A program made the translations under genes and the position numbers. A stretch of DNA of 64,000 nt from Nanobdellota archaeon (GTDB lineage: Archaea > Nanobdellota > Nanobdellia > CSSed11-243R1), in contig JAGGYW010000013.1 of the NCBI GenBank assembly GCA_021162365.1, positions 8,960 through 72,959 on the forward strand. The letters are read 5' to 3'. The notes beneath the pieces are model-generated. The model did not search any database, was not told the origin of the DNA, and was given only the letters and a program-made list of their open reading frames with translations. How positions within the stretch are numbered: position 1 is the stretch's first letter; each line of letters starts with the position of its first letter. This document shows positions 1 through 59,291 of the stretch, one piece after another.

Positions 1-2246
1 ATAATGTAATCCCAAACTGCTTGGTCGCTCCAGCTTCTGCCCGCGTCTAAGAAACCGTCATATACAGAATATAAAGCAAGTATCACTTTGGATTCATTTT
101 TGTCTGTTATGTTAAAGCCCGATTCTTTTATTAGTTTGTCAAGTAAATCCATTCCGTCCATGTAACCCCCAAGATTCATTGGATATCCTGTTATTGTAGT
201 GGATGAAGTGACATTATGCAATCTTATGAATAATGCTCTCTTTTCTAAATCAGTCAGATTTTCATAAGCATTAACTATATCCACTATCATCTGGGCTTCG
301 CTTGCATTTATACCATCATGGAAATTATCGTCTTCAGAAAGCAAGAGCGTTAGGTTTCCATAGTTTTTCAATCTTGAAGTAACATTAAATAAGTCTGGAA
401 TTACGTTAAATTCTTCTTTAGATAGCATGTTGCTTGCAATATACCTCGCAAGCAACATTGGATTTATTTTACCTGTTGTTACTAATGCACGACTTGCATT
501 ATAGTGCCAGTCATCTCCTGCGGGGAACCAACTTAAAAAATCGGATGTGAAATTCATGTTTTCCTGTGTTCCATTTAGTTGGCGGAATACATTATTCCAA
601 TATAATGTAAACCAGTCGGTTGCTCTTGTCCCCACCGTTCCATTTAAAGGCGTTCCTCTTGAACCAAATAAGTTGTATTTATCATTTCCACCCAGCATTA
701 AAATTGGGAGTATTTCCTTAAGTGTGCTGTTTGTATCCTCTATGTATTTTGCTAAATTATTAACCCCGATTGTATCAACTTGTTTTTCAGCTAAATCAAA
801 TGCACCTTTAGTACTTAGTTTGTCTTCTTTTAGAAGAGGGAAGATTTCAGTGTAAAGCGCCCAAACAATTCTTGCTTGAGTTTCATTTTGCATGTTTATC
901 CCTTTCTTCTTTGCGAATTCGCCGGCAAGATATCCTATTGCATCACCTCCATCTCCATCGTACTTTTCTATTTCTTTTTTGATTTCACTTATTTCTTGTT
1001 GTGATGTTGTACTTTGCTCTGAGGTATTAATCTGTGAAGAATTATTATTTCCTTTTTTTGTTGGTATAACAAATGGATAGTTTGTTTTGTTCATTAACTC
1101 AAGGGGAACTATGTTCTTTTCTGGTTGGGTGAGTCTTACATATGAAGTGAATATATCTTTGATTAGTTGAGTTTCGCTTGCGTTTATTCCATCTTGAAAG
1201 TTGTTATTTTCTGAAAGCAGAAGGGTTAGGTTAGAATATTTACTTAAGTTTCCATCAACAGAGAGAATCTTTGGGAGGATGTTGAATTCTTCTCTTGAAA
1301 GTTGACTGCTTTTAATTAGATTGAAGAATTGGTCACCTGTTATGTTACCATCTGCTATAATTGATTGGGTTGCGTTGAAGTGCTCCCAGTTTGTGGCATT
1401 AAATGCACTGAGGAAGTGATCAAGGGCCGTGGAATTTATTGGTTCATTGAATAATTCACTATACATAGTATCCCAATGTGGCGGTTCAGGCATTTTTTGG
1501 AATGCTGCATATGCTGCTGTGAGGAGCGTTCCAAGTGCTACCCCAATAGCGACAATCTTTTTGAAGAGGGATTTTCTCTTTTTCTTCTTTGAAGGGACCC
1601 CACCTTTTTTATTATTCTCACATCCGTTTATGAATCCCTCTCTTGGTGCTTTTCCATTGTCTATGCTATTCCCATTTGTAAGTCCCTGTCTTATTGTTTT
1701 TGGAGAACGAAGGTTTAGCGGGTAACTATGGTTTTCTATTCTTTCGAGGAGATCTACCGCACCATGCTCTATAGCTGCTACTGCGAGATTTGCTTTGTGT
1801 TCTATTTCATCTTCATCACCATAATACTCTAGTCTATGCTCTTTTGGATTAAATTTAAATGGGAGGTTTTCTTCTTCTAAGATTTTTTCAAGAGTTGCTT
1901 GCTCCTCCTCGTTTAGCGGTTGTGTTATCTCTTCTTTTCTTTTCTTGTAAGCACCCCATACCCATGAGAATAAAATTCCATCTGCAACTTCTTTTGGAAT
2001 TCCGAAGTAGGAATCTAGCTTCTTTAAGATATCTCCAACGAAGAGAGTGGGAGCTATACTAATATTTCCTGCCTCATCTAGGCGTTCTAAGAAAGGCCAT
2101 AGTGCATTTACGGTGTAATTTACTAATTCCGGCGTTTCTTCTGGTGATAATTCCTTAGTTTCCCCAAATTTTATGAGCTCCTGCTCTATTGGTGAGAGTA
2201 AATTCATATCCCAAGGCGTCATTAGCGGTTCCGCTTCAGTTGACAT
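1..2246 (-). CDS. Partial CDS (N-terminal >748 aa; C-terminus beyond window start). Single-pass membrane glycoprotein: ~210-aa cytoplasmic N-domain, polybasic stretch KKKKRKSLFKK, TM IVAIGVALGTLLTAAYAAF, then an extracellular region dense in N-x-S/T sequons. Contains an internal ~300-aa tandem duplication (e.g. GNLTLLLSENNNFQDGINASETQ / GNLTLLLSEDDNFHDGINASEAQ).
   Basis: Manual reverse-complement translation from ATG at 2246 gives an uninterrupted frame to position 1. The ORF track omits it because it has no in-window stop. The repeat is visible at DNA level: ~1180-1310 resembles ~290-420. Confidence 0.6.
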   Translation of the reverse strand, partial: MSTEAEPLMTPWDMNLLSPIEQELIKFGETKELSPEETPELVNYTVNALWPFLERLDEAGNISIAPTLFVGDILKKLDSYFGIPKEVADGILFSWVWGAYKKRKEEITQPLNEEEQATLEKILEEENLPFKFNPKEHRLEYYGDEDEIEHKANLAVAAIEHGAVDLLERIENHSYPLNLRSPKTIRQGLTNGNSIDNGKAPREGFINGCENNKKGGVPSKKKKRKSLFKKIVAIGVALGTLLTAAYAAFQKMPEPPHWDTMYSELFNEPINSTALDHFLSAFNATNWEHFNATQSIIADGNITGDQFFNLIKSSQLSREEFNILPKILSVDGNLSKYSNLTLLLSENNNFQDGINASETQLIKDIFTSYVRLTQPEKNIVPLELMNKTNYPFVIPTKKGNNNSSQINTSEQSTTSQQEISEIKKEIEKYDGDGGDAIGYLAGEFAKKKGINMQNETQARIVWALYTEIFPLLKEDKLSTKGAFDLAEKQVDTIGVNNLAKYIEDTNSTLKEILPILMLGGNDKYNLFGSRGTPLNGTVGTRATDWFTLYWNNVFRQLNGTQENMNFTSDFLSWFPAGDDWHYNASRALVTTGKINPMLLARYIASNMLSKEEFNVIPDLFNVTSRLKNYGNLTLLLSEDDNFHDGINASEAQMIVDIVNAYENLTDLEKRALFIRLHNVTSSTTITGYPMNLGGYMDGMDLLDKLIKESGFNITDKNESKVILALYSVYDGFLDAGRSWSDQAVWDYI

Positions 2247-2368
2247 AATTTATAAAAAGAAGATTCCCTTTTTAATATTTACTATTTTTGAGTAACTACT
2301 ACCACGTAGGGTGTGAAAATTTCCTACAACCTTTTTAAGGGAGGAATGATTATGTCGTATAGGTAGAA
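2247..2368. promoter_or_regulatory. Divergent intergenic region between the two giant membrane-protein genes. AT-rich TATA-like boxes (tttataaaaaga, ttttaatattt), a GGAGG Shine-Dalgarno and a 4-codon uORF (atg tcg tat agg tag, 2352-2366) ending 2 nt before the 2369 start.
   Basis: Read directly from sequence. Archaeal BRE/TATA-like A/T hexamers. SD-like GGAGG at 2338-2342. Confidence 0.4.
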
Positions 2369-5300
2369 ATGCGTCGATGGGTGCTCCTTCTTTTGTTGGC
2401 TTTTATTAGCGTGAGCTTTTTAGGTGTTGCTAATGCAGAAGTTTATTTTAACGATTCTAACCCTTCTCCTGGGGAGACGATTTCATTTGATGGGAATGTC
2501 ACGATCTGTGGGAGCAGTCCTCGAATTTTAATTAAAGATCCCTCCGGAAAATATAATCTTAATCCGGATTATGTTGATATAGATGTCAAATACATCAAAA
2601 GCATTGGTTATTGTACTAATAAATATCACGTGAATGGGACCATTAGAATCGGAAGTAATTTTACCTCTGGTGAGTATTCTCTTGTTTTAGATTTCTTGTA
2701 TGGTCTATCTGATCGCATTGTATCATATAAATTCGTTGTTGGCAGTGTTAGCCCTTGGAAATATTTGACTAATTCTCCCGATGGTGACTGGAAAAGTGTT
2801 AACTATGACGATTCAAATTGGGGGGAAGGCGATCCACCTTTTGGGAACCCATCTTTATTTCCAGATTCTGTAAATACTAGTTGGAGTTCTCGAGAGATTT
2901 ATCTAAGGAAGGAAGTCTATCTTGACAACTACTCACAAGCAATGCTAAGGATGTTTGCAGAGAACCACATTGAATGTTGGGTTAATGGAAATTATGTTGG
3001 TGAGCATAGTAGTATTAGTGCATTGAGATCCCTCAATTGTTATGGTGCTGATAATGTGTATTATGGAGATGTTGGTGTTACAGCAATAGGTGATTACACC
3101 TATAACGGGATCAAGTATGTAGATATCTCTAAATACCTAAAGCCAGGGAAAAATGTAATTGCTTGTAGAGCGGAAATATTCAATCAAGTTTATAGAAGGT
3201 GTTTTAACTTCTGTAGGTACTATCCCGGGAGGCAATTCGTGGATGTGGAATTTCTTCCACAACAAGGTAATGAGATATATTGGTCAGTGGATAGAGTTGG
3301 CACATATTACTACAAAAGAAACTACGATGCGTACTCAATTTACAGGGAGTATGGATGTAAAGAAGTGGTAGGTAGTTCTTACATTACACACAGATATGTC
3401 CCTGTGAGAGAATGGGAAGGATATTGGCAATGGAATCAATTGGATATAACTGATGACACAACTTTTTATCATAAGCCAAATCATTTTAACTGGGCATACG
3501 ACGAGTTGGATAGGACAATTTACTGGGGTATATCTCCATTTAATGGAAGAGCAACTTACATTAGGAAGTGGATTTGGAGTAGTGAAGATAAGTATTCTGT
3601 TTTAAAGGTGGCGAGTTTAAGCGAGCCAGTATGTTTTATAAATAACAAGCAAATTGCATTTTATGATTATAATCATAACTATTGGAGATATGTCTCTTAT
3701 GTCCATCTAACAGAGGGAGCAAATTTAGTCGCATGTTCCCTTCCATACAACGAATTTAATCTGTTTGATATATCCCTTTCTGCATTTGATGGAAAATTTA
3801 AGATTGATAATGTAAGATATGGTGATGGGAAGTTATTTATTGATCTGAGTGGCTTAGCGCATCCTGAAGTAAATTCTTTAGTTGAGGTAAATATTAGTAA
3901 TAAATCATACACTCTCCCAGTTGTAGATGCAGAGATAAATAAGAATACTGTTGTTGGGAATGTTTCTATTCCAAGTAAATCCCCCACTTGGGAAGAAAAT
4001 GCTACTTTGAGTGCAGTAGAAAATGCAGCACACACTTCAAATATTTTGGACGGAAATTGGAATAGTTACTGTTTTGCGTCACGCGGAGACCGGAATATGA
4101 CTGTTGAAGAAACATTTCATCTTCTTTCAAATCTTACTCTTTCAGAACTTAGAATCAAGTATAAATTCTTAAATAATGTTGAAGTGTATTTGTTTAATTA
4201 TAATACGAGCTCGTTTGATTTAGTAGATAAAAAATTCGCTAACTTAGTTTCAATGAGAACAATAGAAATTTCGAATGCTACTAGTTATTTCTCCCCAAGT
4301 GGCGAGGTGATAGTTAAATTAGTTGCTTCTGGAGATGCACGCCTGTATGAAGTTGCAATAATGTATGATGGGTTGCGAAATGTTTTTACTAATTATACTT
4401 ATATTCTTTCTTCGAAAGAAGTTGAGATTCCCATTTCAGTTGATCCAGGAATGTACAACTTAACTATCTCTGCTATTGATTTAATAGATGGTGAAATGGA
4501 TGTGTTTTTTGGTGAGATTTCTATTCCACAATATACTCCTGTTAACATTGGGTTTGTCCCAGTAAGTGGGAGCGGCAAATCAAATGATGGTGTAAAAGTT
4601 AATGGGGCTGTTGCCGTTGCTGCAATTGCTACATCTGCTGCCTTGGTTGCTATTCGTGTTGTGAGGGATAGTAGGAGCCCAGTTGGGCAGATTGAGAAAT
4701 CATTACAAAAGATGGATAAGATATTATCGCGTTTGGAGAGGCACAGACAAAGTTCAATACGTTCAAATTTATTTTCTTTTGTTAGTTTGGTGAATAAGAA
4801 ATATAATCTATTTAAACAACACTTAATGGAACGCAGGGAAGAAGAGAAGAGGGTGGATGAGTTAAAGGAGGAGATTAAAGAGCGCCGGAAGAAGATGAAG
4901 GAAGAGAGGGATTCTCTGTCTGAGAAGTTAGTGAAGGTGTTATTATCTAATCTTAGTGGGTCTATTGAAGAGCAGATAAGGGAAATAGATAGTTTGCTAA
5001 GTGGGTATGAGCTTAACTACAAAGATGCAAAGTTGCTTCTTAGGTATAGAAGGATGCTGTTTGCTAAGCTATTTGATATCGACAGCGAGAAAGTGGATGC
5101 ACTTGTCAAAGAGTTTGCAAGGGAGCATAAGTTAGGTTATCTGAAGTTGGGCAGGTGGTCGGATAGACTTCGTCTTATAATAGATGACTCAAGCTTAAGA
5201 AGTGAGTTTGAGGAGTTCTTGAATGGCAAGGATACAGGGGAGTTTTCCGATGAGATTACCCTAATTGAGGAGACATCTAGCGCTGAAGAAATTGATGATG

Positions 5301-7078
5301 AAGTCGAAGTAGTTGGCATTAGTGATGAAATAAATATAATTAATGAGATAATAGATACTTTTTCTGAGTGGGTTAATAAAATTGACTTTGATAATATTAG
5401 TGATGTTGAGTTATCATTTATATCCATCTATCTTGGAGAGTTAAAGGAGAAAATAAATGGATTATGGAAAAGGATAACTACTGAGTTAAATCCGAGCAAG
5501 GCTGAAATAGCTTTTGCAAATCAGAAATTTATTGAACTTTTGGGAAAAGAGAATGTACCTTTTGATATTTATAATCCATTTTTTGACAACAATGATTTCT
5601 TAGAGAATGCAATTGGGGTATCCGAAGAAAAGGTTAATATTCTGACTAAGCTGTTTATGTTGTCCCGTACAATGTATGATCTGAACAAAAGTGTTTTATT
5701 TAAAATAGATCCTGCCTCTGCTGCTCTAGAGTATTTTGATGAATTCGATTTGGCGATAGGATTTGTTCCACTCGCAGGGGATGTAGTTGATCTAGCTAAT
5801 TCTGTGGCGCATGTGATTTATGGATTTTGGAAAAATAACAAAGAGGAGGCGATCTTAAACATTATCTTAGCTACTATTGCGGTATGGGGTAGTGTAAGTG
5901 CATTTAGAGAGATGGGAAAGTTAAGCAAATCATCCCTAACTAAATTCAGAAAGACTCTACTTAGGAAGTTAATAGATATGGGAGTACCTGAGGAGGAAGC
6001 AGATAACATTGTTAGGAAGTTCGTTAGTTCTATGGATGATATGTCTGAAGCCATGTTTAATAAATTTAAAAATGCTTTAGATGATTTTGTTGAATTAGGC
6101 ATAGATTTAAGCAAAATAGACGATGTAGCTAGAGTCAATCTGTTGAAGTTAAGTAAATCCAAGTTAGATAAGCTGACTGATTTTATAAGGCGTGCCCCCG
6201 CAGGGGAAGTTGATGTTTCCACTTTGTTAAATAATATTCTTTCACATTCGGATGATGTTCTCCCGGTAATATCTAAGCTGAATTTGGATGATTTGAGTCC
6301 GGCTTTCTTTAAGTTGTTAAATGAAATGGATGATACCTCTCAAGTTTTCAAGTACCTCTCAAAAGCAGATGATGCCACTGATGTTGCTAATAAGTTGGCT
6401 GAGTTAAGAGCATTGGGGCTTAGTATAAATAAGATTAAGAAAATATTTTCTTGGCCAAAGATAAAGTTTGACATGGGAGGTAATGCTTTTGAAAGTTTTG
6501 TAAAGAATTTTGATGAGTGGGCGAAGGGATTTGATAAATTAAAAGACATAGTCTCAGAGGACATGGTGATAACGCTTAAAGATACAGTTTCAAGCGATGC
6601 AGGGGGAATATCGTGGGGTAAACATGGTGGATATGAGCACTGGATTGAGTTGAACGTTGGAGCGATATCCGAGTATCCGGAAGTTGCACCATCGATTATT
6701 CTTCACGAGGCTATTGAGAATAAGATATGGGCAAAGTTGGAGGGTTTATTCCCAAATAGAAGTTACGGCGAACAAGAGGTAATTGTTGAGTCTCTTGTAA
6801 GAAAGTTGCTTGGGAAAGGAGAATACAAATTTGCTACTCTTTCATCGCTTATGGATGAGATAGAAGAGATGATTAAAAATTGGCACTTACTTTCTGAGTT
6901 AGATAGAGATGTTTTAGCTAAGGATATGGCAATCCTTAGTGGCTTAGATATGCAATCCTATAAGGCATTTGAGAGCAAATTAATAAATATGAATGCGTGG
7001 TTTAGTATTAGTGAGGATATAAGCAAATATGCTGATGTTTTTAATAACGATTGGGCGAATTTATTGCTAGGGGGGTGA
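2369..7078 (+). CDS. Giant (1569 aa) single-pass membrane protein. Cleavable signal peptide (MRRWVLLLLLAFISVSFLGVANA), ~730-aa extracellular region with many N-glycosylation sequons and a possible galactose-binding-like/jelly-roll region. TM at VAVAAIATSAALVAIRVV. ~800-aa cytoplasmic coiled-coil/charged domain.
   Basis: ORF track. Hydrophobicity pattern and sequon density read from the translation. No catalytic motif recognised. Confidence 0.7.
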   Translation: MRRWVLLLLLAFISVSFLGVANAEVYFNDSNPSPGETISFDGNVTICGSSPRILIKDPSGKYNLNPDYVDIDVKYIKSIGYCTNKYHVNGTIRIGSNFTSGEYSLVLDFLYGLSDRIVSYKFVVGSVSPWKYLTNSPDGDWKSVNYDDSNWGEGDPPFGNPSLFPDSVNTSWSSREIYLRKEVYLDNYSQAMLRMFAENHIECWVNGNYVGEHSSISALRSLNCYGADNVYYGDVGVTAIGDYTYNGIKYVDISKYLKPGKNVIACRAEIFNQVYRRCFNFCRYYPGRQFVDVEFLPQQGNEIYWSVDRVGTYYYKRNYDAYSIYREYGCKEVVGSSYITHRYVPVREWEGYWQWNQLDITDDTTFYHKPNHFNWAYDELDRTIYWGISPFNGRATYIRKWIWSSEDKYSVLKVASLSEPVCFINNKQIAFYDYNHNYWRYVSYVHLTEGANLVACSLPYNEFNLFDISLSAFDGKFKIDNVRYGDGKLFIDLSGLAHPEVNSLVEVNISNKSYTLPVVDAEINKNTVVGNVSIPSKSPTWEENATLSAVENAAHTSNILDGNWNSYCFASRGDRNMTVEETFHLLSNLTLSELRIKYKFLNNVEVYLFNYNTSSFDLVDKKFANLVSMRTIEISNATSYFSPSGEVIVKLVASGDARLYEVAIMYDGLRNVFTNYTYILSSKEVEIPISVDPGMYNLTISAIDLIDGEMDVFFGEISIPQYTPVNIGFVPVSGSGKSNDGVKVNGAVAVAAIATSAALVAIRVVRDSRSPVGQIEKSLQKMDKILSRLERHRQSSIRSNLFSFVSLVNKKYNLFKQHLMERREEEKRVDELKEEIKERRKKMKEERDSLSEKLVKVLLSNLSGSIEEQIREIDSLLSGYELNYKDAKLLLRYRRMLFAKLFDIDSEKVDALVKEFAREHKLGYLKLGRWSDRLRLIIDDSSLRSEFEEFLNGKDTGEFSDEITLIEETSSAEEIDDEVEVVGISDEINIINEIIDTFSEWVNKIDFDNISDVELSFISIYLGELKEKINGLWKRITTELNPSKAEIAFANQKFIELLGKENVPFDIYNPFFDNNDFLENAIGVSEEKVNILTKLFMLSRTMYDLNKSVLFKIDPASAALEYFDEFDLAIGFVPLAGDVVDLANSVAHVIYGFWKNNKEEAILNIILATIAVWGSVSAFREMGKLSKSSLTKFRKTLLRKLIDMGVPEEEADNIVRKFVSSMDDMSEAMFNKFKNALDDFVELGIDLSKIDDVARVNLLKLSKSKLDKLTDFIRRAPAGEVDVSTLLNNILSHSDDVLPVISKLNLDDLSPAFFKLLNEMDDTSQVFKYLSKADDATDVANKLAELRALGLSINKIKKIFSWPKIKFDMGGNAFESFVKNFDEWAKGFDKLKDIVSEDMVITLKDTVSSDAGGISWGKHGGYEHWIELNVGAISEYPEVAPSIILHEAIENKIWAKLEGLFPNRSYGEQEVIVESLVRKLLGKGEYKFATLSSLMDEIEEMIKNWHLLSELDRDVLAKDMAILSGLDMQSYKAFESKLINMNAWFSISEDISKYADVFNNDWANLLLGG

Positions 7079-7542
7079 AAGATATTTTGAGATATCATTC
7101 ACACATCTTTTATGGTGATAAGAAAATTCATGAAGGTATTGTTAAGGAATTGAGTGAATTAGAGCACAGTCTAAAAGACAGATTAAGATGTGCTAAAATA
7201 AAATTTTACGGTGTTAGTTTGGCGGCGAGATGGCTAGAGAATGTGCTCCCTAAGGAGAAGAGTTCATATATCCCACGTGTAGCCTTATACTATATATTTG
7301 AAAGAGCACATGATAGAAAGATACCTATTTTATTGAGGAGCGAATCAGTATCTGAGTTTAGAGCCCCCACATCCAGAGACTTAAAAATAGTGAAAAGTGT
7401 ATTAGAGATAGACAAAGTGAGAGGATGGAAGTCTATAATAACTCGAATGGAAAAGATTGGTAAGGATATAGTTTCGACATCCTCTGGCGAATCGTTTGAT
7501 AAGGTTGTGGATCATTGGATAAAGGGGACCATTCCAATGTAA
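7051..7542 (+). CDS. Hypothetical protein (163 aa). Overlaps the 3' end of the giant ORF by 28 nt in another frame.
   Basis: ORF track. No recognisable motif. Confidence 0.45.
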   Translation: MGEFIARGVKDILRYHSHIFYGDKKIHEGIVKELSELEHSLKDRLRCAKIKFYGVSLAARWLENVLPKEKSSYIPRVALYYIFERAHDRKIPILLRSESVSEFRAPTSRDLKIVKSVLEIDKVRGWKSIITRMEKIGKDIVSTSSGESFDKVVDHWIKGTIPM

Positions 7543-7569: not shown

Positions 7570-8067
7570 TTGAATATGGTAATATATTTATCTAATTCGG
7601 TTAAGGGTTTGCGGAAAGATAATTTCTTTAGAGATTTGGCTCGGTTAAGTGTGCCTATCCCATTTAAGTTGTTGGTATACCTACTTGACCTAAGGAGGTT
7701 TAGGAAGAATCTTCCTAAAGATGTGATGGCTAGGAGAGATTTGCTGGTAGATGCACTACTAGTTTCACTAGTTTCATATAAATTACGATTTTCATCTAAG
7801 GATAGTTTAAGTGGAGTAGAGATGTTATATTATTCTTTGGGAGAGTATGAAAATTATCTTAAGAGGATATTGAGAGGGATGTTTACTAATAGAAAGGACA
7901 TTACCATGTTGCCTGGTGATGTGGTGCAATCTCTAGCGAAGAAAATACTCAACCTTCAACTTAAGAAGGGCCTTTTCAAACTTAAAGATGGGAAGTTAAT
8001 TCCCACAAAGAAGTGGGAGAAGTTAAAGAAGGATTTAACTCCATTTATTGAGTATCTTATAGATTAA
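7570..8067 (+). CDS. Hypothetical protein (165 aa), basic and helical.
   Basis: ORF track. Co-oriented with and downstream of the giant ORF. Confidence 0.45.
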   Translation: MNMVIYLSNSVKGLRKDNFFRDLARLSVPIPFKLLVYLLDLRRFRKNLPKDVMARRDLLVDALLVSLVSYKLRFSSKDSLSGVEMLYYSLGEYENYLKRILRGMFTNRKDITMLPGDVVQSLAKKILNLQLKKGLFKLKDGKLIPTKKWEKLKKDLTPFIEYLID

Positions 8068-8121: not shown

Positions 8122-9225
8122 TTAGATAGCACATGTATAAATATCATTATCTTGAATCCACGCTATTCTTCTCCAAAATACAACCGGGTTTGTTTCGTTA
8201 GTTTTTGAGTTTGTTACTTGGATAATTTTTTTGTTGTGTATGTTATATGCGTAAATATCCCATTGATTGTTCTCGAGTTTTTGCCAAACTATGTAGTATG
8301 AAGAAACCCATGGGTTGATATCTGCGCTTTTGTCGCTTGTTATTCTAACTGTCTTGTTGGTAGATAAATCATGGTAGTATATGTTCCAGTTATTGTCTCT
8401 TTCTTGCCAGGCAATTATGTTTTTATATACCATTACATTCTTCATGTTGTTGCCTTTTTTGATTGTGTGTATGTCATCTTTATTAAATGTGTAATAACAC
8501 GAGAGGAAACAGATAACCCCATAATCAGTTGGGCGGTCATAACACGCTTCGGTTTTTTCAGCAGTTTTGTTTGATAGATTGTAATACTTCACCATAGTTT
8601 GATTATTAATACTTGAGATCCATGCTAGATTATTTTTGAATACATCAAGGGATAAGATACTATTTGGATTGTCTTTTATCTCATGTTTGCATTGGTTTTC
8701 AGAAAGGTTTAAGCAGAATATCTTATAAGATCCTACCCTATCTGAATAACATAAAATATTCTCCGATAGTTTTGGCGTACTTGCGCTTCTGGATGGTATA
8801 ACTTCACTTTTGTTAGTGACCATATCAAAGATTTTAATATCAAAGTCTGTTCTAAATAGTAAATATTCATCAAATATATCTCTCTCTTTTGATGACAGAT
8901 ACATCTCCAATTCTTTTGTTTTATTCTTGAGTGCATCATATAGGAACAAATGATAATTTGATCCCTCTTTTGTCTCCCAGACAATTTTATTCTCCCACAT
9001 GTTTAGGTTTACTTTTTTATTATGGTCATTAGTTATTTTGGTAATGTTACATAGTGATTCTGTCATGTTGTTTTCATTTGATTTGTTTATTTCAATTTTT
9101 GATGGTGTATTTGGTACATCGGTTGAGACATTCTCTACTGCTTCTTCTTTTACATTTTGGTGTGCCACACAGCCAAGAGAGAGTATAAGTGTGAATGTAA
9201 GAAAGAGCATTAGTATTTTTTTCAT
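8122..9225 (-). CDS. Secreted beta-propeller (TolB/PD40-like repeat) protein, probably a lipoprotein (signal peptide ending LSLGC).
   Basis: Repeated W-x-x...Y/W blades (KIVWETKEGSNYHLFLYD, NIIAWQERDNNWNIYYHDL, YYIVWQKLENNQWDIYAYN, RRIAWIQDNDIYTC). N-terminal hydrophobic signal with Cys. Confidence 0.55.
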   Translation of the reverse strand: MKKILMLFLTFTLILSLGCVAHQNVKEEAVENVSTDVPNTPSKIEINKSNENNMTESLCNITKITNDHNKKVNLNMWENKIVWETKEGSNYHLFLYDALKNKTKELEMYLSSKERDIFDEYLLFRTDFDIKIFDMVTNKSEVIPSRSASTPKLSENILCYSDRVGSYKIFCLNLSENQCKHEIKDNPNSILSLDVFKNNLAWISSINNQTMVKYYNLSNKTAEKTEACYDRPTDYGVICFLSCYYTFNKDDIHTIKKGNNMKNVMVYKNIIAWQERDNNWNIYYHDLSTNKTVRITSDKSADINPWVSSYYIVWQKLENNQWDIYAYNIHNKKIIQVTNSKTNETNPVVFWRRIAWIQDNDIYTCAI

Positions 9226-9309: not shown

Positions 9310-10086
9310 ATGAAAAAATTATTTTTACTTTTAGTGGTAGTTTCCTTTGCGATTTTTATAGCTCCGAGTTTGGCGAATGCAGCTTGTAATGGAGTTACTA
9401 TTTGTGGAGTTAACTACACATGTGGTGTAAGTGATGGTGTATGTCCTGAAGACTTCTCTGCATGTGATAGATGTTCTACATGCGATCCCGACTGCGGACC
9501 TTGCGGTGGCGTTGGTGCAGCAGGCGGTGGAGGAGAGCAGACATATAGATGTCGAGCGGATTTTGAATCATATTATATATTTAGCCTTGAGGCAGGTGGG
9601 GTGTTTAGTACAATAGAAGATAGATATTGTACAGATTTACATTTGTATAAATTAAAGGTAAGCAATCCTATTAAGGATGCAACTACAAAGGTTGTTTTGA
9701 TTGAGCCCGAGGTAATTCCTCCGGAGGGGAAAGTATACAACTATTATAATTTCTCTGTGGATGATATGAAAAATTCTGATGTCGATGTAGTTGAATTTAG
9801 ATATAGGGTGCCTAATGAGTGGATAAGTAACAACAGTGTTGCTGAAGATAGAGTTGTGTTATACAAGCAAAGGAATGTGTTTTGGGAGAGGTTGGACAGC
9901 GAGAGATTAGGAAAAGACGAGCAATATAACTATTATTCTGCGAAGAGCAATTCCTTTGGAGTTTATGCTATTGTAGGTCATGGATTAGAGATTTGGGATG
10001 TACTTGAGAAGATTAGTTTATACTATTCTGGGGACATAGATTTCATAGAAGTGTTACATGTTATCGATATGTACTATTCATTCTAA
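9310..10086 (+). CDS. Secreted cysteine-rich protein. Signal peptide, Cys-rich N-module (CNGVTICGVNYTCGVSDGVCPEDFSACDRCSTCDPDCGPCGG), Gly-rich linker, ~170-aa C-domain.
   Basis: ORF track and manual inspection. Confidence 0.55.
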   Translation: MKKLFLLLVVVSFAIFIAPSLANAACNGVTICGVNYTCGVSDGVCPEDFSACDRCSTCDPDCGPCGGVGAAGGGGEQTYRCRADFESYYIFSLEAGGVFSTIEDRYCTDLHLYKLKVSNPIKDATTKVVLIEPEVIPPEGKVYNYYNFSVDDMKNSDVDVVEFRYRVPNEWISNNSVAEDRVVLYKQRNVFWERLDSERLGKDEQYNYYSAKSNSFGVYAIVGHGLEIWDVLEKISLYYSGDIDFIEVLHVIDMYYSF

Positions 10087-10126: not shown

Positions 10127-11422
10127 GTGAGTTGGATGGCAAAAGGATATTTACATTACATAAATCTTGGCTACAAGCCAAAAAAAGACGAGCTTATAGC
10201 TGTATACAAGTTTAAACCAAGGAAAGGGGTGGGTAAGAAAGAAGCAGCGGGAGCAATTGCAGCAGAATCCTCTACAGGAACTTGGACAACACTTTCTACA
10301 ATGACTTTGAAGAGAATGACAAAGATAGGTGCGAAGGTTTACAAAATGTATGGGGACTATGCAGAGATAGCATACCCGCTTGATTTATTTGAATTGGGTA
10401 ATATGCCTGAGATTCTTTCTTCTATTGCTGGAAATATTTTTGGTATGAAGGAAGTTGACACTATAAGGCTTGTTGATGTCAAGTGGCCAACGAAGTTAAA
10501 GAATTCTTTTAAGGGACCGCAGTTTGGTATAAAAGGTGTGAGGAAACTTTTAGGTGTAAAAAAGCGCCCATTAGTTGGCACTATTGTAAAGCCAAAACTT
10601 GGATTGACTTCCAAGGAGCATGCCAAAGTTGCTTATGAAGCGTGGGTTGGTGGATTAGACATAGTAAAAGATGATGAGAATTTAACATCACAGCCATTTA
10701 ACAAGTTTAAGAAAAGAGTTGAAGAAACATTGAAGCTAAAATGGAAGGCAGAAAAAGAAACAGGCGAAAGAAAAATGTATATGGCAAATGTAACAGCAGA
10801 AACAAGAGAGATGCTAAAGCGTGCAAAGTTCCTTAAGGATATGGGAAATGAATATGCAATGGTTGACATTCTTACTGTTGGGTTTGCTGGATTGCAAACT
10901 TTACGTGATGAAATGGATAAACTAAAGCTTGTTTTGCATGGCCACCGTGCTATGCATGCTGCACTTACAAGGAATCCGAATCATGGCATATCTATGTCTG
11001 TGCTTGCAGAGATTTCAAGATTGATTGGAACAGACCAGCTACATGTTGGTACCGCGGTTGGTAAGATGGAAGGCAAGAAGAAAGATATCATCTATATAGT
11101 AGATGATGTTGAAGGGAAGTTCATAAGGAAGAGGGGGCACATGCTAGCAGAGAACTGGGGAAAGATAAAACCTATGTTTGCGGTTTGTTCTGGTGGATTG
11201 CATCCAGGATTAGTTCCACCACTAGTTAAGATGTTTGGCGAGGACATAATTATTCAAGCTGGTGGAGGGGTGCATGGACATCCGAGAGGAACAAGAAAGG
11301 GTGCAACTGCAATGAGGCAAGCAGTAGATGCAACTCTGAGAGGAGTCCCACTTAGAGAATATGCAAAGACACACAAGGAGTTAAAAGAAGCAATTGAAAA
11401 GTGGGGAGTTTACAAGGGGTGA
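10127..11422 (+). CDS. rbcL: Ribulose-1,5-bisphosphate carboxylase/oxygenase, archaeal form III large subunit.
   Basis: Family signatures GAIAAESSTGTWTT, GGLDIVKDDENLTSQPF, HGHRAMHAALTR. Length 431 aa. Confidence 0.9.
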   Translation: MSWMAKGYLHYINLGYKPKKDELIAVYKFKPRKGVGKKEAAGAIAAESSTGTWTTLSTMTLKRMTKIGAKVYKMYGDYAEIAYPLDLFELGNMPEILSSIAGNIFGMKEVDTIRLVDVKWPTKLKNSFKGPQFGIKGVRKLLGVKKRPLVGTIVKPKLGLTSKEHAKVAYEAWVGGLDIVKDDENLTSQPFNKFKKRVEETLKLKWKAEKETGERKMYMANVTAETREMLKRAKFLKDMGNEYAMVDILTVGFAGLQTLRDEMDKLKLVLHGHRAMHAALTRNPNHGISMSVLAEISRLIGTDQLHVGTAVGKMEGKKKDIIYIVDDVEGKFIRKRGHMLAENWGKIKPMFAVCSGGLHPGLVPPLVKMFGEDIIIQAGGGVHGHPRGTRKGATAMRQAVDATLRGVPLREYAKTHKELKEAIEKWGVYKG

Positions 11423-12920
11423 TATAGTGTTTCAGCTGAGAGCAAAGATTGTTGATATTGAAACGGGCGGCATGCCTGTTATTTCTTTAAATGAAGATTT
11501 TGCTAAAGAAAATGATTTTCACAATATGGATAGGGTGGTAGTTAGTTTTAATGGGAAATCTCTTGTTGCAGCAGTTGATACTTCTGAAAAGATAGTTTCA
11601 AAGGAAGAGGTAGGTATATTTGAAGATGTGTGGAAAAAGTTGAAAATTAAGAATGGGGACATTGTTGAGATTACTCCAGTTGGTAAGCCGGAGTCGACAA
11701 AGTATATACGCAAGAAGATGGATAGGGAAGAACTTTTCGATAAAGAGATTAGAGCGATTGTGAAAGACATTGTTGATGAAAAGTTGACAGATGTTGAAAT
11801 GGCAGCATTTGTTGCTGCGTCATATATGGAAGGATTAAGTATGTCGGAGACGACAAGCCTAACTCGTGCAATTGTAGAAACGGGTGGTCGTTTGAAGTTA
11901 AGGAAGAAAATAATTGCGGATAAGCATTCCATTGGTGGAGTGCCCGGAAACAGAGTTACTATGGTGTTGGTCCCCATAATTGCATCTCTTGGAATCACAA
12001 TCCCAAAAACATCTAGTCGTGCTATAACTTCCCCTTCAGGTACAGCGGACACCATGGAAGTTTTAGCAAACGTTAGTTTCTCAACGGAAGAATTAACTAA
12101 AATTGTAGAAAAGACAAATGGGTGCATTGCATGGGGTGGGGCAATTAATCTTGCGGCTGCGGATGACAAGCTTATCAGAATTAGACACCCACTTTCTTTG
12201 GATCCTGAAGGTTTAATGCTCGCATCTGTTATGGCAAAGAAAGTTGCAGTTGGGGCTACTCATGTTATATTTGACTTGCCAATAGGTGAGGAAGCAAAGC
12301 TCCAATCTTTAGGTGAGGCGAGACACCTTGAGAGAGAATTTACAAAACTTGCAGAGAAATTTGGTATTAAGGTTGAAACTTTAGTGACAGATGGAAACAA
12401 CCCAATTGGCAATGGGATCGGACCCAATCTTGAAGCAAGAGATGTTCTTTGGCTTTTAAAGAACGATAGAAGGGGACCTTTAGATTTGAGGAGAAAGTCT
12501 GTCTTGCTTGCAGGTAAACTTCTCGAATTAGTTGGTTATGCAAAGGAAGGAGAAGGGGAGAAAATTGCGGATGCACAGATAGACAACGGAAAGGCGTATC
12601 AGAAGATGAAAGAGATAATTGAAGCGCAGGGTGGAAATCCAAATGTCAATCCAGAAGATTTGCATGTTGGGGAGTTTACATGTGATTATGAAGCTGAAAA
12701 GTATGGTAGAATAACAAATATGAGTAATCATGCTCTCGCGAAGATAGCAAGGGCTGCAGGCTCTCCAGTGGATAAGGAAGCAGGCATTTACATCTATAAG
12801 AAGTATGGTTCTAATGTTAAGCAAGGAGAAAAAATATTTACTGTATACTCTAAAAGTGAAAGGCGCATAGAGCGTGCTATAAAGCTTATGAAGGAATTGA
12901 ATCCTGTTACAATTGAGTGA
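11394..12920 (+). CDS. deoA: AMP phosphorylase (thymidine-phosphorylase family with N-terminal extension).
   Basis: Pyrimidine-nucleoside phosphorylase core (SIGGVPGNRVTMVLVPIIASLG, TSSRAITSPSGTADT) plus the N-terminal domain typical of archaeal AMPpase. Start overlaps the rbcL stop. Confidence 0.85.
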   Translation: MKSGEFTRGDIVFQLRAKIVDIETGGMPVISLNEDFAKENDFHNMDRVVVSFNGKSLVAAVDTSEKIVSKEEVGIFEDVWKKLKIKNGDIVEITPVGKPESTKYIRKKMDREELFDKEIRAIVKDIVDEKLTDVEMAAFVAASYMEGLSMSETTSLTRAIVETGGRLKLRKKIIADKHSIGGVPGNRVTMVLVPIIASLGITIPKTSSRAITSPSGTADTMEVLANVSFSTEELTKIVEKTNGCIAWGGAINLAAADDKLIRIRHPLSLDPEGLMLASVMAKKVAVGATHVIFDLPIGEEAKLQSLGEARHLEREFTKLAEKFGIKVETLVTDGNNPIGNGIGPNLEARDVLWLLKNDRRGPLDLRRKSVLLAGKLLELVGYAKEGEGEKIADAQIDNGKAYQKMKEIIEAQGGNPNVNPEDLHVGEFTCDYEAEKYGRITNMSNHALAKIARAAGSPVDKEAGIYIYKKYGSNVKQGEKIFTVYSKSERRIERAIKLMKELNPVTIE

Positions 12921-15588
12921 TATGATGGGAGAAAGTGCATGGCATACACTAAAGATAAAAGAAATATTTAGGGTGCTCGAGACAAGTGAGAATGGATTAA
13001 CCAGTGAGGAAGCAGAAAGAAGGCTTTCGGAGTTTGGCCCAAATGAGTTAACTAAAGAAAAAAAGAAAACCATACTCTCAATTTTTTTAAATCAGTTCAA
13101 GTCGTTTTTGATAATAATTTTAATAATTGCTGCGCTTATCTCGTTTGCAGTTGGTGAGACACTCAACTCAATTGTTATTTTAATCATACTTCTTATTAAC
13201 GCTTTTCTTGGATTCTTTCAAGAGTACAAGGCAGAAAAAGCTGTGGAAGCACTAAAGAAAATGACTGCCCCCCGAGCTCTTGTTTTACGTGATGGTGTTA
13301 AAAAAGAAATTTTTTCGCGAGAGCTTGTTCCCGGCGATATTGTTTATCTGGAGGAAGGGAAGCAGGTGCCGGCTGATGTGAGAATTATTGAGTCTCAAAA
13401 CTTAAAGGTGGATGAAAGCATTCTAACAGGAGAATCCTTGCCGGTTCTAAAAGAAGTTTGCACTCTTAAGAAGGAAGTTCCTCTTTCTGAGATGAAAAAT
13501 ATGGCTTTCTTTGGCACATATGTTACATATGGCCATGGTAAAGGTGTTGTAGTAAGAACAGGAATGGAAACAGAGATGGGTAAAATCGCTGAGCTTGTTC
13601 AGGAAACAATAGAAGAAGAAACCCCACTTAAGAGAAAATTAAACAATTTAGCTAAGCAATTGGGTTTAATTGTTCTGTTCATAATTGGACTTGTTTTCTT
13701 GCTAAATATCTATGTTCATTCTAAAGAATTAATTGAAATTTTCATTTTAGCAATTGCCATGGCAATATCTGCTGTCCCAGAAGGACTGCCTATGGTTGTA
13801 ACTTTAACATTGGCTTTGGGTATGCAGGCAATGGCAAAACAAAACGCAATTGTTAGAAAACTAATGGCTGTTGAGACGTTGGGCGCCACAACTGTAATTT
13901 GCTCGGATAAAACAGGGACCTTAACAAAAAATGAGATGACTGTGACTGAAATATATGCTAACGGTAAATTCATCGAAGTAACTGGGGCAGGATATAAACC
14001 AATTGGTAAGTTTTTACTTGATGGGAAAGAGATAAATCCATCATCAGATAAGACGTTATCTCGCCTTCTTGAGATTGGGGCACTTTGCAATAATGCTGAA
14101 ATGATTAAAGATGATGGATGGAGAGTAATTGGTGATCCCACAGAGGGAGCATTAATATCTCTTGCTGAGAAGGGAGGATTTTCGCCGGAGAAGTTAAAAA
14201 AGCAAGCCAAGTTTATCACAGAAGTCCCCTTTTCTTCTGAAAGAAAGATGATGAGTGTTGCTTATTCTAATAAGAAAGTCATTTCATATGTTAAGGGAGC
14301 TCCTGAAAAAATTATTGATAGATGCAATTTCATCTTAGAGAATGGCAAAGTAAAGAAAATTACCCCTGCAATCAAGAAACAACTCATTAAAACATCTAAT
14401 AAAATGGCTGGGAAGCCACTTAGGGTTCTTGCATTTGCATATAAGGAACTTCCAAAGAGAAAGAAATACACATTCAAGGATATGGAATATGGATTGACTT
14501 TTGTTGGATTTGTTGGTATGATTGATCCTCCACGAGAGGGCGTTAAAGACGCTATCAGAAAATGTAACGAAGCTGGAATAAGAGTGATAATGATAACTGG
14601 GGACCACAAGACAACAGCAGTTGCAATTGCAAAAGAGATTGGTATAATGAAAGAAGGTGATATTTGCATTACCGGTATGGAACTAGAAGGAATGTCTCTT
14701 AAAGAGTTAGAGGAAGTTGTTGACAAAGTTTCTGTCTTTGCGAGGGTGTCTCCTGAGCATAAAGTTAAGATTTTACAGGCGTTGGATTCCAAAGGTGAAA
14801 CAGTTGCAATGACTGGCGATGGGGTTAATGATGCTCCTGCTCTTAAGCGGGCGCATATAGGGGTTGCTATGGGTATAAAGGGAACGGATGTTGCGAAACA
14901 AGCAAGCGATATGATTTTGGAAGATGATAACTTTTCAACAATTGTAAAGGCAGTGGAAAGCGGCAGAAGAATTTATGATAATATAAAGAAGTTTGTTAGG
15001 TTTGAACTGGCGGCTAACTTTGATGAGATTGCAGTTATCTCTTTTGCAGCGATATCTGGCCTTCCACTTCCGCTTTTGCCACTTCAGCTCTTGTGGATAA
15101 ATCTTGTTACGGATACAATTCCTGCCACCACATTAGCTATCGATCCGCCTGAAAAAGATATAATGAGACGACCGCCGAGAAAGAGAAATGAAAATATGAT
15201 TTTGGATATGCTACCTTATCTTTTGGCAACAATAGTGGTATGTACTTTTGTTGATACATGGTTGTTCTTGTGGGGACTGCAATATGGAATTCAAAAGGCA
15301 AGGACCCTTGTATTTACAGGTACAGTTATGTTCCAGCTTTTCTTGGTCTTCAATATACGTTCTGAAAGAAGGCCTTTCCTAAGAACAAATCCATTTGAGA
15401 ATAAGTATTTAGTGCTTGGTGTTTTTGCATCTTTCTTATTACAACTCGCAGTAGTTTATCTTCCACCACTTCAGGCAATATTTGGGACATTCCCATTAGA
15501 TTTGATAGATTGGGTTGTTGTAATGCTCTTTGCATTAATTGCCCTTGCAATTTCGCCAATAATATTTAGGTGGAGAAAGTCTACATGA
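12913..15588 (+). CDS. P-type cation-transporting ATPase (type II, Ca2+/cation pump-like).
   Basis: DKTGTLT phosphorylation motif, TGDGVNDAPAL hinge motif, ~10 TM helices. 891 aa. Confidence 0.9.
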   Translation: MSDMMGESAWHTLKIKEIFRVLETSENGLTSEEAERRLSEFGPNELTKEKKKTILSIFLNQFKSFLIIILIIAALISFAVGETLNSIVILIILLINAFLGFFQEYKAEKAVEALKKMTAPRALVLRDGVKKEIFSRELVPGDIVYLEEGKQVPADVRIIESQNLKVDESILTGESLPVLKEVCTLKKEVPLSEMKNMAFFGTYVTYGHGKGVVVRTGMETEMGKIAELVQETIEEETPLKRKLNNLAKQLGLIVLFIIGLVFLLNIYVHSKELIEIFILAIAMAISAVPEGLPMVVTLTLALGMQAMAKQNAIVRKLMAVETLGATTVICSDKTGTLTKNEMTVTEIYANGKFIEVTGAGYKPIGKFLLDGKEINPSSDKTLSRLLEIGALCNNAEMIKDDGWRVIGDPTEGALISLAEKGGFSPEKLKKQAKFITEVPFSSERKMMSVAYSNKKVISYVKGAPEKIIDRCNFILENGKVKKITPAIKKQLIKTSNKMAGKPLRVLAFAYKELPKRKKYTFKDMEYGLTFVGFVGMIDPPREGVKDAIRKCNEAGIRVIMITGDHKTTAVAIAKEIGIMKEGDICITGMELEGMSLKELEEVVDKVSVFARVSPEHKVKILQALDSKGETVAMTGDGVNDAPALKRAHIGVAMGIKGTDVAKQASDMILEDDNFSTIVKAVESGRRIYDNIKKFVRFELAANFDEIAVISFAAISGLPLPLLPLQLLWINLVTDTIPATTLAIDPPEKDIMRRPPRKRNENMILDMLPYLLATIVVCTFVDTWLFLWGLQYGIQKARTLVFTGTVMFQLFLVFNIRSERRPFLRTNPFENKYLVLGVFASFLLQLAVVYLPPLQAIFGTFPLDLIDWVVVMLFALIALAISPIIFRWRKST

Positions 15589-59107: not shown

Positions 59108-59291
59108 TTAATTCACCCGAACATGTTTCGCTTTCACGAAACATGTCTTGTTAGATAATATTTGCAATTTTGATTCCTTTTTAAATCTTTTGCTTTTGGT
59201 TTCAATATGCAGTGGTTCGTTCACACAATATGTTGTTATACCACATGTTGAGCATAACAATTTAAATACCTTTTATGTGTTACAGTTTCTC

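Follow-up and report, generated by a model that had tools for sequence, protein, structure and literature searches.

Two rare predicted envelope proteins at one locus of a Nanobdellota archaeon, one of them with a mosaic C-terminal tail

Two giant genes at the locus

We analysed two giant, divergently oriented genes at one end of a 64,000-nucleotide stretch of DNA (the window) from a Nanobdellota archaeon (assembly GCA_021162365.1, contig JAGGYW010000013.1, positions 8,960 to 72,959 of the forward strand), which had been proposed earlier, from the sequence letters, to encode a co-regulated pair of membrane proteins (hereafter the original prediction). The plus-strand gene (2369..7078, + strand) encodes a protein of 1569 amino acids (aa), the plus protein, which is 100% identical to the NCBI entry 'hypothetical protein J7K73_01620 [Nanoarchaeota archaeon]', from an 87.7-kb contig of a metagenome-assembled genome. 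The NCBI model has 1561 aa, starting eight codons later at a TTG (2393), and loses the MRRW n-region of the signal peptide. With the ATG at 2369 as start, the protein regains the canonical signal peptide that the homologues have in common. The minus-strand gene occupies 1..2246 (- strand) with its first 748 codons, and the remaining 351 codons lie beyond position 1. As originally noted, no stop codon interrupts its frame between 2246 and position 1, and the gene is missing from the list of open reading frames (ORFs), because ORFs running off the window are not listed. The spacer between the two genes, read directly, is 122 bp long (2247..2368), in agreement with the 120 bp given before.

Predicted architecture of the plus protein

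The plus protein begins with a predicted signal peptide (aa 1-23, 2369..2437, + strand), MRRWVLLLLLAFISVSFLGVANA, which has a hydrophobic span with a mean Kyte-Doolittle (KD) value of 2.39 and is probably cleaved before E in an ANA/E motif, which we identified in the letters themselves and which the plus homologues have kept. It is followed by an ectodomain of ~720 aa, for which profile comparison predicts a jelly-roll fold, the sole homology of this protein to anything known. Using hhalign, the first galactose-binding-like jelly roll (aa 138-273, 2780..3187, + strand) was matched, through the family profile, to the C-terminal sugar-binding region of P0009, a GH2-type protein of Bacteroidota (probability 96.3%, E 1.6e-9). 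This 'sugar-binding domain-containing protein' was also the sole outside protein recovered by the plus-family profile search. A second jelly roll, at about aa 340-470 (3386..3778, + strand), appears to be a diverged copy of the first (probability 94.7%, E 5.8e-8 between the two), and Pfam models reach no threshold for these jelly rolls. The ectodomain is rich in sequons (16 observed versus 8.5 expected, P=0.006), with 4 in the C-terminal half of the protein, and over the whole family there are 114 on the outside versus 80 expected, and 24 in the tail versus 42 expected.

A predicted transmembrane (TM) helix (aa 747-765, 4607..4663, + strand; KD 2.22) comes next, which is Ala/Ser-rich and followed by a basic stretch, pointing to an N-out/C-in orientation. 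Beyond it lies a conserved juxtamembrane region, predicted to be cytoplasmic (aa 766-960, 4664..5248, + strand), with a junction motif, DRLRLIIDDSSLRSEF, at aa 932-947 (5162-5209, + strand), right after which identity between family members collapses. The signal peptide, the large ectodomain and the TM helix of the plus protein had all been recognised in the original prediction, and the hydrophobic spans and sequon-enriched ectodomains also agree with its claim that both proteins have large domains on both sides of the membrane. The proposed 800-aa cytoplasmic coiled coil could not be retained: a crude scan of heptad a/d positions flags aa 772-862 only (~90 aa), and elsewhere the tail is made of helical or amphipathic modules and a hydrophobic hairpin. 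The protein was also proposed to be single-pass, and this does not hold given a further pair of hydrophobic segments at aa 1128-1150 and 1161-1179 (KD 1.43 and 1.94; 5750-5905), which, given the basic residues that follow aa 1179, may form a hairpin and lead the chain back into the cytoplasm.

A conserved N-terminal part and recombined C-terminal cassettes

The comparison of the family members points to a new finding, namely that the plus family appears to combine a conserved N-terminal part of ~950-990 aa with recombined C-terminal cassettes, consisting of a hydrophobic hairpin module and then a helical module with an HExxE/H motif. The homologues P0002-P0006 align with the window protein up to about aa 950-990, the alignment being shorter for P0007 (up to about aa 889) and P0008 (up to about aa 846), and the shared region is closed by D(Q/R)LRLIIDD(P/S)xLRSxF in six of the eight members, the motif being absent from P0007 and P0008. 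In the window protein, variable cassette 1 (aa 961-1367, 5249..6469, + strand), which holds the hydrophobic pair, is common to P0002 only, as judged by BLASTP and tblastn, and variable cassette 2 (aa 1380-1569, 6506..7075, + strand), the helical C-terminal module with HEAIE at aa 1446-1450 (6704-6718, + strand), is shared over aa 1380-1566 with P0007 only, at 29-30% identity. The breakpoint is best seen between P0002 and P0006, which are 76% identical over 982 N-terminal residues and unrelated afterwards, with the break falling within ~40 residues after the motif; the tail of P0002 matches instead that of the window protein (36% over 383 aa). A different kind of exchange is found between P0003 and P0005, where an internal segment is replaced between related flanks and similarity is back at 42-62% in the last 150 residues.

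Each of the eight members has one HExx[E/H] motif, located 123-143 aa from the C-terminus, which is HEISH (a true HExxH) in P0002 and HExxE in the other seven. Because this motif stands at a set distance from the C-terminus and the members have an FN-containing end in common, the terminal modules seem to be divergent versions of one domain. This comparison relies on a motif-anchored alignment (A6), used in place of the alignment of the whole cytoplasmic region (A5), in which MAFFT misplaced the P0007 fragment. An AlphaFold2 (AF2) model of the C-terminal module of the window protein, with a mean predicted local distance difference test score (pLDDT) of 59, has a six-helix bundle over the last ~130 aa (pLDDT 60-93), with the HExxE motif in its first helix (pLDDT ~56-63) and an acidic helix (QEVIVES) downstream. 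A Foldseek search of the PDB with this model gave no related fold, the best hit (E 0.44) not being a peptidase.

Two minor observations concern the tails. Residues 1049-1134 of P0005, encoded at locus L001 of 'Nanobdellati archaeon S014_metabat2_scaf2bin.107', have a Pfam match to haemolysin E/ClyA that stays below threshold (E 0.0024, 17.7 bits versus a cutoff of 25); the matching segment is the Gly/Ala-rich hairpin cassette of the P0004-P0007 type, and the match is centred on the membrane-inserting tongue of that toxin. A resemblance of the motif GFVPLAGDVVD to DUF4112 was considered and dropped, there being no Pfam match.

Coupled small ORFs and orphan cassette fragments

Directly downstream of the plus gene lies small ORF 1 (7075..7542, + strand), whose probable start codon, the GTG at 7075, overlaps the TGA at 7076-7078 (GTGA); it would be translationally coupled to the plus gene, and its listed start is the TTG at 7051. 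For small ORF 2 (7570..8067, + strand), a homologue of the ORF found after P0002, the probable start is the ATG at 7576, preceded by a GGTGG run. A small ORF begins about -8 to +3 nt from the stop of the giant gene in 6/6 loci. These ORFs appear unrelated between cassette types, and in the two pairs where they are similar the similarity follows the type of cassette: those of L001 and L002 (48% identity), and window ORF 2 and L005 6335-6571, after P0002 (34% identity, E 2e-8), P0002 being the sole homologue that has cassette 1 in common with the window protein. No small ORF matches a family in Pfam, NCBIfam, PADLOC or PHROGs.

Fragments of cassettes are also found on their own beside two members of the family. 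In L001, positions 9481-9801 (ORF 9571-9843, 90 aa, upstream of P0005) match the hairpin module of P0003, with 41% identity to this type of module and E-values of 1e-15 to 1e-18. In L004, an ORF downstream of P0008 (6270-6914) repeats 66 aa of the C-terminal part of that protein. No orphan cassette fragments were found within the window.

The minus protein and its completion

The alignment of the minus protein with its orthologue P0010 (from L001, 38-40% identity) begins at residue 1 of both proteins, and the start at 2246 is therefore fixed. The N-terminal domain (aa 1-230, 1557..2246, - strand), predicted to be cytoplasmic, has a conserved M(A/S)TEA(K/E)P start (alignment A2) and a basic cluster at its end; it is helical in a low-confidence AF2 model (pLDDT <50 over most of it) and gave 0 family matches in Pfam and NCBIfam. 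It is followed by a predicted TM signal-anchor (aa 231-249, 1500..1556, - strand), the one hydrophobic span of the 748-aa fragment, which averages KD 2.05 over its 19 residues and has in front of it a KKKKRK cluster that points to a positive-inside orientation, and then by a segment (aa 250-748) with 24 sequons versus 7.0 expected from composition (P<0.001), compared with 3 in the N-domain. From this flanked hydrophobic span and the sequon enrichment after it, an N-in/C-out protein with a glycosylated ectodomain can soundly be inferred, as had been proposed.

The continuation of the gene was found through P0015, recovered in the exhaustive search of representative sequences, whose first ~27-28 residues are identical to the end of the window fragment. 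The contig of P0015 (L006) overlaps window positions 1-664 at 663/664 nt and continues past the window edge, giving a complete minus protein of 1099 aa, and so the completion that the original prediction had recommended was achieved. The two repeat units described below are followed by a domain of ~330 aa with an invariant Asp-Cys (P0015 aa 165-166) and a His (H211) 45 aa later, and, as judged by eye, with an acidic residue ~19 aa after the invariant His in 3 of 4 sequences. Searches of Pfam, NCBIfam and the PDB gave no family or profile match for this domain. The Cys/His pair might be the signature of a transglutaminase-like or papain-like enzyme, which we offer as a lead only. Membership in a known enzyme family, an outcome that the original prediction had named as speaking against it, was not found: there is no family match, only this candidate motif.

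The complete protein ends in IPEFSDMMIPTAATLLIGLYARRAARRKREED, that is, PEF followed by a hydrophobic stretch and a basic tail. Because this end adds to the N-terminal TM segment, the minus protein appears to have an anchor at each end, provided that it is not processed by an enzyme of the archaeosortase type, and the single-pass topology proposed for it has to be given up as well. The tripartite C-terminal signal is visible in P0015, P0010 and P0011 and not in P0012, and no NCBIfam CTERM model matches at E<=1. The sole mismatch between L006 and the window (window 95, L006 570) changes codon 718 from GAA in the window to TAA in L006, where the gene is thereby split into two products, of 189+ aa and of 379 aa. 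Either a sequencing error or a genuine nonsense allele present in the population may account for this difference.

An ancient internal duplication

The minus ectodomain contains two related units, with a period of ~292 aa, so that the ~300-aa duplication of the original prediction does exist. Unit 1 (aa 256-470, 837..1481, - strand) appears to be the extra copy and unit 2 (aa 548-748, 3..605, - strand) the ancestral-type one. The two are 32% identical over 210 aligned columns (BLASTP, E = 5e-32). The ~80% DNA identity that had been given is wrong: the sole match at the DNA level extends over 118 nt at 69.5% (window 1115-1232 versus 239-356), and the duplication went undetected by an ungapped repeat finder and by Tandem Repeats Finder (TRF). 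Both units are predicted to be all-alpha, with AF2 cores at aa 320-375 (pLDDT 70-79) and aa 610-665 (pLDDT 69-79); these cores are the sole interpretable part of the model of the 748-aa fragment (mean pLDDT 47), for which Foldseek found no match in the PDB.

Both units are present in the orthologue P0010, and P0011, P0012 and P0013 have one unit, lacking unit 1. In an all-against-all comparison, window unit 1 is nearest to unit 1 of P0010, and window unit 2 is nearest to the single units of P0011 (50% identity), P0012 and P0013. Because unit 1 groups with its counterpart in P0010 and unit 2 with the single unit of the distant homologues, the duplication is judged to be ancient, predating the split of species whose proteins are now ~40% identical. 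It had been taken for a recent event and a sign of rapid evolution, and neither view survives; what changes fast at this locus appears to be no ectodomain but the tail of the plus protein, which is predicted to be cytoplasmic. That the repeat or the gene models are artefacts of assembly, another outcome the original prediction had named as speaking against it, would be conceivable given that the source is a metagenome-assembled genome and that in the near-identical contig of another assembly (L006) a nonsense change interrupts the minus gene. This explanation is effectively refuted and can be set aside for practical purposes: copies with 32% identity in protein, and 69% over 118 nt in DNA, cannot be collapsed or duplicated reads, both are found in an independent genome, an independent assembly reproduces window 1-664 at 663 of 664 nt, and the NCBI record has an identical plus protein.

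Rarity of the two families

Both families seem to be very rare, lineage-restricted and unrelated to each other. The plus family amounts to eight clusters at 90% identity among 5.8 billion, by single-sequence and profile search alike, with a relative in 1 of 185,579 species-representative genomes; among the metagenome contigs of the Joint Genome Institute (JGI) there was one match, a duplicate of a known member, and viral contigs scanned with the plus-family alignment (A1) contained 0 relatives. Look-ups of contigs that encode exactly the window plus protein or P0001 gave 0 matches. For the minus family, the exhaustive search recovered 6 matches among 1.84 billion representatives; a word-indexed search for homologues had given 8000 candidates, none significant, and a scan of genome contigs 0 matches. 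No paralogue of either giant protein was found elsewhere in the window.

Searches with both giant proteins and their homologues against Pfam, NCBIfam, PADLOC and PHROGs returned nothing significant, only coiled-coil noise and the sub-threshold HlyE match, and sequence and profile searches of the PDB with A1, A4 and small ORF 2 found nothing. A TAF1 bromodomain match in the PDB search (E 0.002) is weak and was treated as chance. The remote-homology and structure comparison of the cytoplasmic domains, which had been suggested as a check, thus gave no family or fold match in Pfam, NCBIfam, PDB or Foldseek.

The two genes are not a conserved module

The two genes had been read as sharing a promoter and forming one trans-envelope complex for signalling or host contact. 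In the window genome they are indeed divergent and 122 bp apart, both lie in the same island of the orthologous genome (L001), in both proteins a substantial portion is predicted for each side of the membrane, and one sequencing run (SRR32456876) also yielded a protein of each family. Only in the window genome are the two genes directly adjacent and divergent: in L001 the genes are separated by 1.67 kb and four small ORFs, in L003, L004 and L005 the plus gene has other neighbours and no adjoining minus-family gene, and in L008 the minus-family gene directly faces a PGF-pre-PGF gene, the plus-family gene of the same run being on another contig. Each gene seems to have its own TATA-like run, identified by eye, at 2269-2281 (- strand, -23 to -35 from the ATG) for the minus gene and at 2331-2339 (+ strand, -30 to -38) for the plus gene, instead of a shared promoter; the output of a sigma-70 promoter scanner was set aside as unsuited to archaea. 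The two proteins have no mutual sequence similarity, and their families do not co-vary, since the plus tail is mosaic and the minus proteins differ mainly in the number of repeat units. The synteny comparison, also proposed as a check, thus speaks against an obligate pair, and the two genes are not a conserved two-gene module. Co-regulation of both genes from a shared promoter, as parts of one complex, is a weaker reading that we find very improbable.

Contact proteins, exchangeable effectors or structural components

We regard the architecture, the rarity, the age of the duplication and the swapping of cassettes as secure, and what we infer from them concerns topology, glycosylation, binding of a ligand and of a partner, and any role towards a host. 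The reading that we favour, tentatively, is that both are envelope proteins involved in contact or adhesion, and that the plus protein acts as a lectin-like receptor whose polymorphic cytoplasmic tail binds a partner. It would be a type-I membrane glycoprotein, whose lectin-like head, on a ~720-aa sequon-rich ectodomain, would bind a glycan on the surface of a partner or host. A single TM segment would lead to a conserved cytoplasmic stalk of ~200 aa (aa 766-960), up to the DDPxLRSKF-type motif, past which the tail would be put together by recombination from a membrane-dipping hairpin module and a helical HExxE/H module. This tail may dock a strain-specific small protein encoded by the coupled downstream ORF, and the docking may couple contact to an intracellular response or to anchoring. 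The minus protein would display a heavily glycosylated loop of ~820 aa, with one or two all-alpha units followed by the Cys/His-pair domain, and it is probably a surface scaffold or an enzyme.

A cell-surface or contact role, the part of the original prediction that can be kept, is reasonable for an archaeon of the DPANN group (Diapherotrites, Parvarchaeota, Aenigmarchaeota, Nanoarchaeota as well as Nanohaloarchaeota), and the part that invoked a conserved pair or complex is unsupported. Large surface and membrane proteins of Nanoarchaeota are reportedly thought, following work by Jarett and colleagues from 2018, to mediate contact between symbiont and host, and giant proteins of nanohaloarchaea are said to serve the same purpose. 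The proteins described here resemble such lineage-specific surface proteins in their DPANN origin, large size, richness in sequons, predicted membrane anchoring, narrow distribution and location in a surface-protein island. They differ in that, in the plus family, the ectodomain is conserved and the predicted cytoplasmic tail diversifies; the comparison is a general one, and no sequence relationship was found between either protein and the described examples of DPANN contact proteins. The predicted head resembles the galactose-binding-domain-like jelly rolls of GH2-type glycosidases and those similar to carbohydrate-binding modules (CBM-like), given the match of aa 138-273 at 96% and its diverged second copy. 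It differs from GH2-type glycosidases in that no glycosidase catalytic domain is attached and Pfam thresholds are not reached.

Several points weigh against a contact role with a partner-binding tail. Adhesins and receptors do not usually have a hypervariable cytoplasmic tail accompanied by orphan fragments, a combination that fits conflict systems better, and the organism has no known host. The topology of both proteins is a prediction from hydropathy, charge and sequon statistics, their glycosylation is likewise predicted, and the first arm of the putative hairpin (aa 1128-1150) has three Asp and is weakly hydrophobic. Both AF2 models are weak, that of the plus module being confident in the last ~130 aa only, and neither matches a solved fold in the PDB. 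The co-variation of small ORFs and cassettes rests on two pairs, and no relative of window small ORF 1 was detected, even behind P0007, whose C-terminal cassette is of the same type.

The main rival holds that the plus gene is an archaeal polymorphic, toxin-like effector system, in which the N-terminal part is a device for display or receptor binding, DDPxLRSKF marks the start of an exchangeable cargo made of a membrane-inserting hairpin and an HExxE/H domain, and the coupled small ORF encodes an immunity protein. The cargo would be held in the cytoplasm until contact triggers its export, in the manner of the secretion arrest that, as reportedly described by Ruhe and colleagues in 2018, is programmed into CdiA. 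This rival explains the logic of the cassettes better: as in polymorphic toxins and contact-dependent inhibition (CDI) systems (CdiA-CT/CdiI, Rhs-CT), a large, surface-displayed protein has a conserved N-terminal body and a conserved motif, here in 6 of 8 members, with a sharp breakpoint before exchangeable C-terminal cassettes; a small coupled ORF follows in every locus and is similar between cassette-sharing loci in two cases; and orphan cassette fragments lie near two relatives (upstream in L001, downstream in L004). The HEISH of P0002 and the weak HlyE/ClyA pore-former match of the P0005 hairpin (E 0.0024) point in the same direction. Archaeal polymorphic toxin loci have been treated by Makarova et al., as cited in PMC6393860, a passage of which names Zn-protease domains as signatures of such loci, and the term 'programmed secretion arrest' is in use in passages of PMC8510554 and PMC9086364. 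The rival conflicts with the predicted topology, in which the TM segment, the positive-inside rule and the depletion of sequons place the C-terminal half in the cytoplasm of the producer, so that this half is not predicted to be presented to a target, as it is in CDI systems. It also has no toxin signature: no toxin or immunity domain was recognised at the plus locus in Pfam (DUF4157 and other zincins included), NCBIfam, PADLOC, PHROG or PDB, the small ORFs are unlike known immunity proteins, and no dedicated secretion partner (two-partner, T6SS or T7SS-like) was seen in the neighbourhood. Rather than carrying unrelated toxins, all cassettes appear to end in divergent versions of one helical HExxE/H module. 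This module resembles zincin (HExxH) metallopeptidases, including BlaR1-type membrane sensor-proteases, in having H-E-x-x-(E/H) on a helix near the C-terminus of a receptor-like membrane protein, a canonical HExxH in P0002 and an acidic helix after the motif. It differs from them in having Glu for the second His in 7 of 8 members, in giving no zincin profile match in Pfam or NCBIfam even at E<=5, and in its AF2 model, a plain helical bundle with a low-confidence N-terminal part, no zincin-like beta-sheet and no fold match. On balance, we consider an effector system of this kind unlikely. A bolder version, which we rate as quite unlikely, would make the plus gene the first contact-dependent polymorphic effector of DPANN archaea, with a lectin-tipped surface stalk and a cargo, consisting of a membrane-inserting Gly/Ala-rich hairpin and an HExxE/H metallo-domain, parked in the cytoplasm behind a weak Ala/Ser-rich stop-transfer segment; upon contact it would be released or translocated into a host or competitor, the coupled small ORF encoding a cognate immunity or chaperone protein and the orphan fragments serving as a reservoir of cassettes.

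A simpler alternative is that both proteins are ordinary structural components of the envelope, such as S-layer-associated or wall-organising glycoproteins with no role towards a partner cell, and that the variable tail reflects relaxed constraint. The sequon-rich ectodomains, an island that also holds PGF-pre-PGF, beta-propeller and L1_1950-like secreted or surface proteins, the absence of any detected enzymatic or signalling family and the C-terminus of the minus protein would all agree with this. The last of these, PEF followed by ~15 hydrophobic residues and an Arg/Lys cluster, is common to the minus protein and two homologues and resembles the end of archaeosortase substrates (PGF-/PEF-CTERM); it differs from these in that the minus protein has no NCBIfam CTERM match, the homologue P0012 has no PEF, and the family also has an N-terminal cytoplasmic domain and signal-anchor, unusual among such substrates. 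Core structural components are unlikely to be limited to a handful of genomes, and relaxed constraint leaves unexplained the clean exchange of cassettes, with 36-67% identity inside common ones, as well as the conserved junction motif, the conserved HExxE/H and the coupled ORFs. A purely structural role is thus among the weaker readings, and in our judgement a doubtful one.

DPANN archaea need physical contact with other cells, and nearly none of the proteins involved are known. The locus provides two concrete, rare candidates for such contact proteins, of which the plus family is the more useful, given that a conserved lectin-like head, a recombining tail and a coupled small ORF form a pattern that normally marks systems of conflict or specificity. 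Should the tail prove to be an effector or to determine specificity, it would be an archaeal counterpart of the bacterial contact-dependent systems, with an unusual topology in which it is parked inside, and the host range of uncultured nano-archaea could be approached directly through it. Otherwise, the analysis is still a useful correction, since there is no conserved module, and the duplication appears ancient and is no sign of rapid evolution.

Genomic surroundings

The window has a G+C content of 33-39%. On the 3' side of the plus gene lie the two small ORFs, a beta-propeller protein and a Cys-rich PGF-pre-PGF secreted protein, and further 3' a type III RuBisCO, AMP phosphorylase, a P-type Ca-ATPase and arginyl-tRNA synthetase (ArgRS). 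This gene order is repeated in L001/L009, of 'Nanobdellati archaeon S014_metabat2_scaf2bin.107', the sole related species-representative genome, and in the metagenome contig L002, and because of this recurrence the locus is identified as chromosomal DPANN DNA. Both giant genes belong to a single island of surface-protein genes, which adjoins those for form III RuBisCO and AMP phosphorylase. Two genes are conserved next to the minus gene, one for an L1_1950-like surface protein and the other for an L1_4503-like membrane protein.

Within this island, the Cys-rich PGF-pre-PGF protein (9310-10086) is a kept neighbour, 57-60% identical in L001 and L002. In L008 the gene that the minus-family gene faces encodes a partial homologue of it, with 50-81% identity over 27-44 aa, and a PGF-pre-PGF-like segment of ~25% identity (61002-61415) is found inside an FG-GAP/beta-propeller ORF of the window (59148-61664). 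The beta-propeller protein next to the small ORFs (8122-9225, - strand) has 367 aa and is rich in sequons; its N-terminus resembles that of a lipoprotein (LSLGC), and it contains beta-propeller repeats, matching TIGR04275 below cutoff. Neither L001 nor L002 has it at the equivalent position. Another large envelope protein, the third (29449-33426, - strand), of 1325 aa, has an N-terminal anchor, is rich in Cys, Ser, Thr and sequons, has no Pfam match and is unrelated to the two proteins studied here. The type III RuBisCO, AMP phosphorylase and a PMR1/SERCA-type P-type ATPase stand in a row at 10127-15588, the first two being part of the archaeal AMP-salvage pathway. The window also encodes two ribonucleotide reductases (21229-23877, - strand, and 61720-63813, + strand), each with an ATP-cone, one having an aerobic-type barrel domain (Ribonuc_red_lgC) and the other being an anaerobic class III NrdD.

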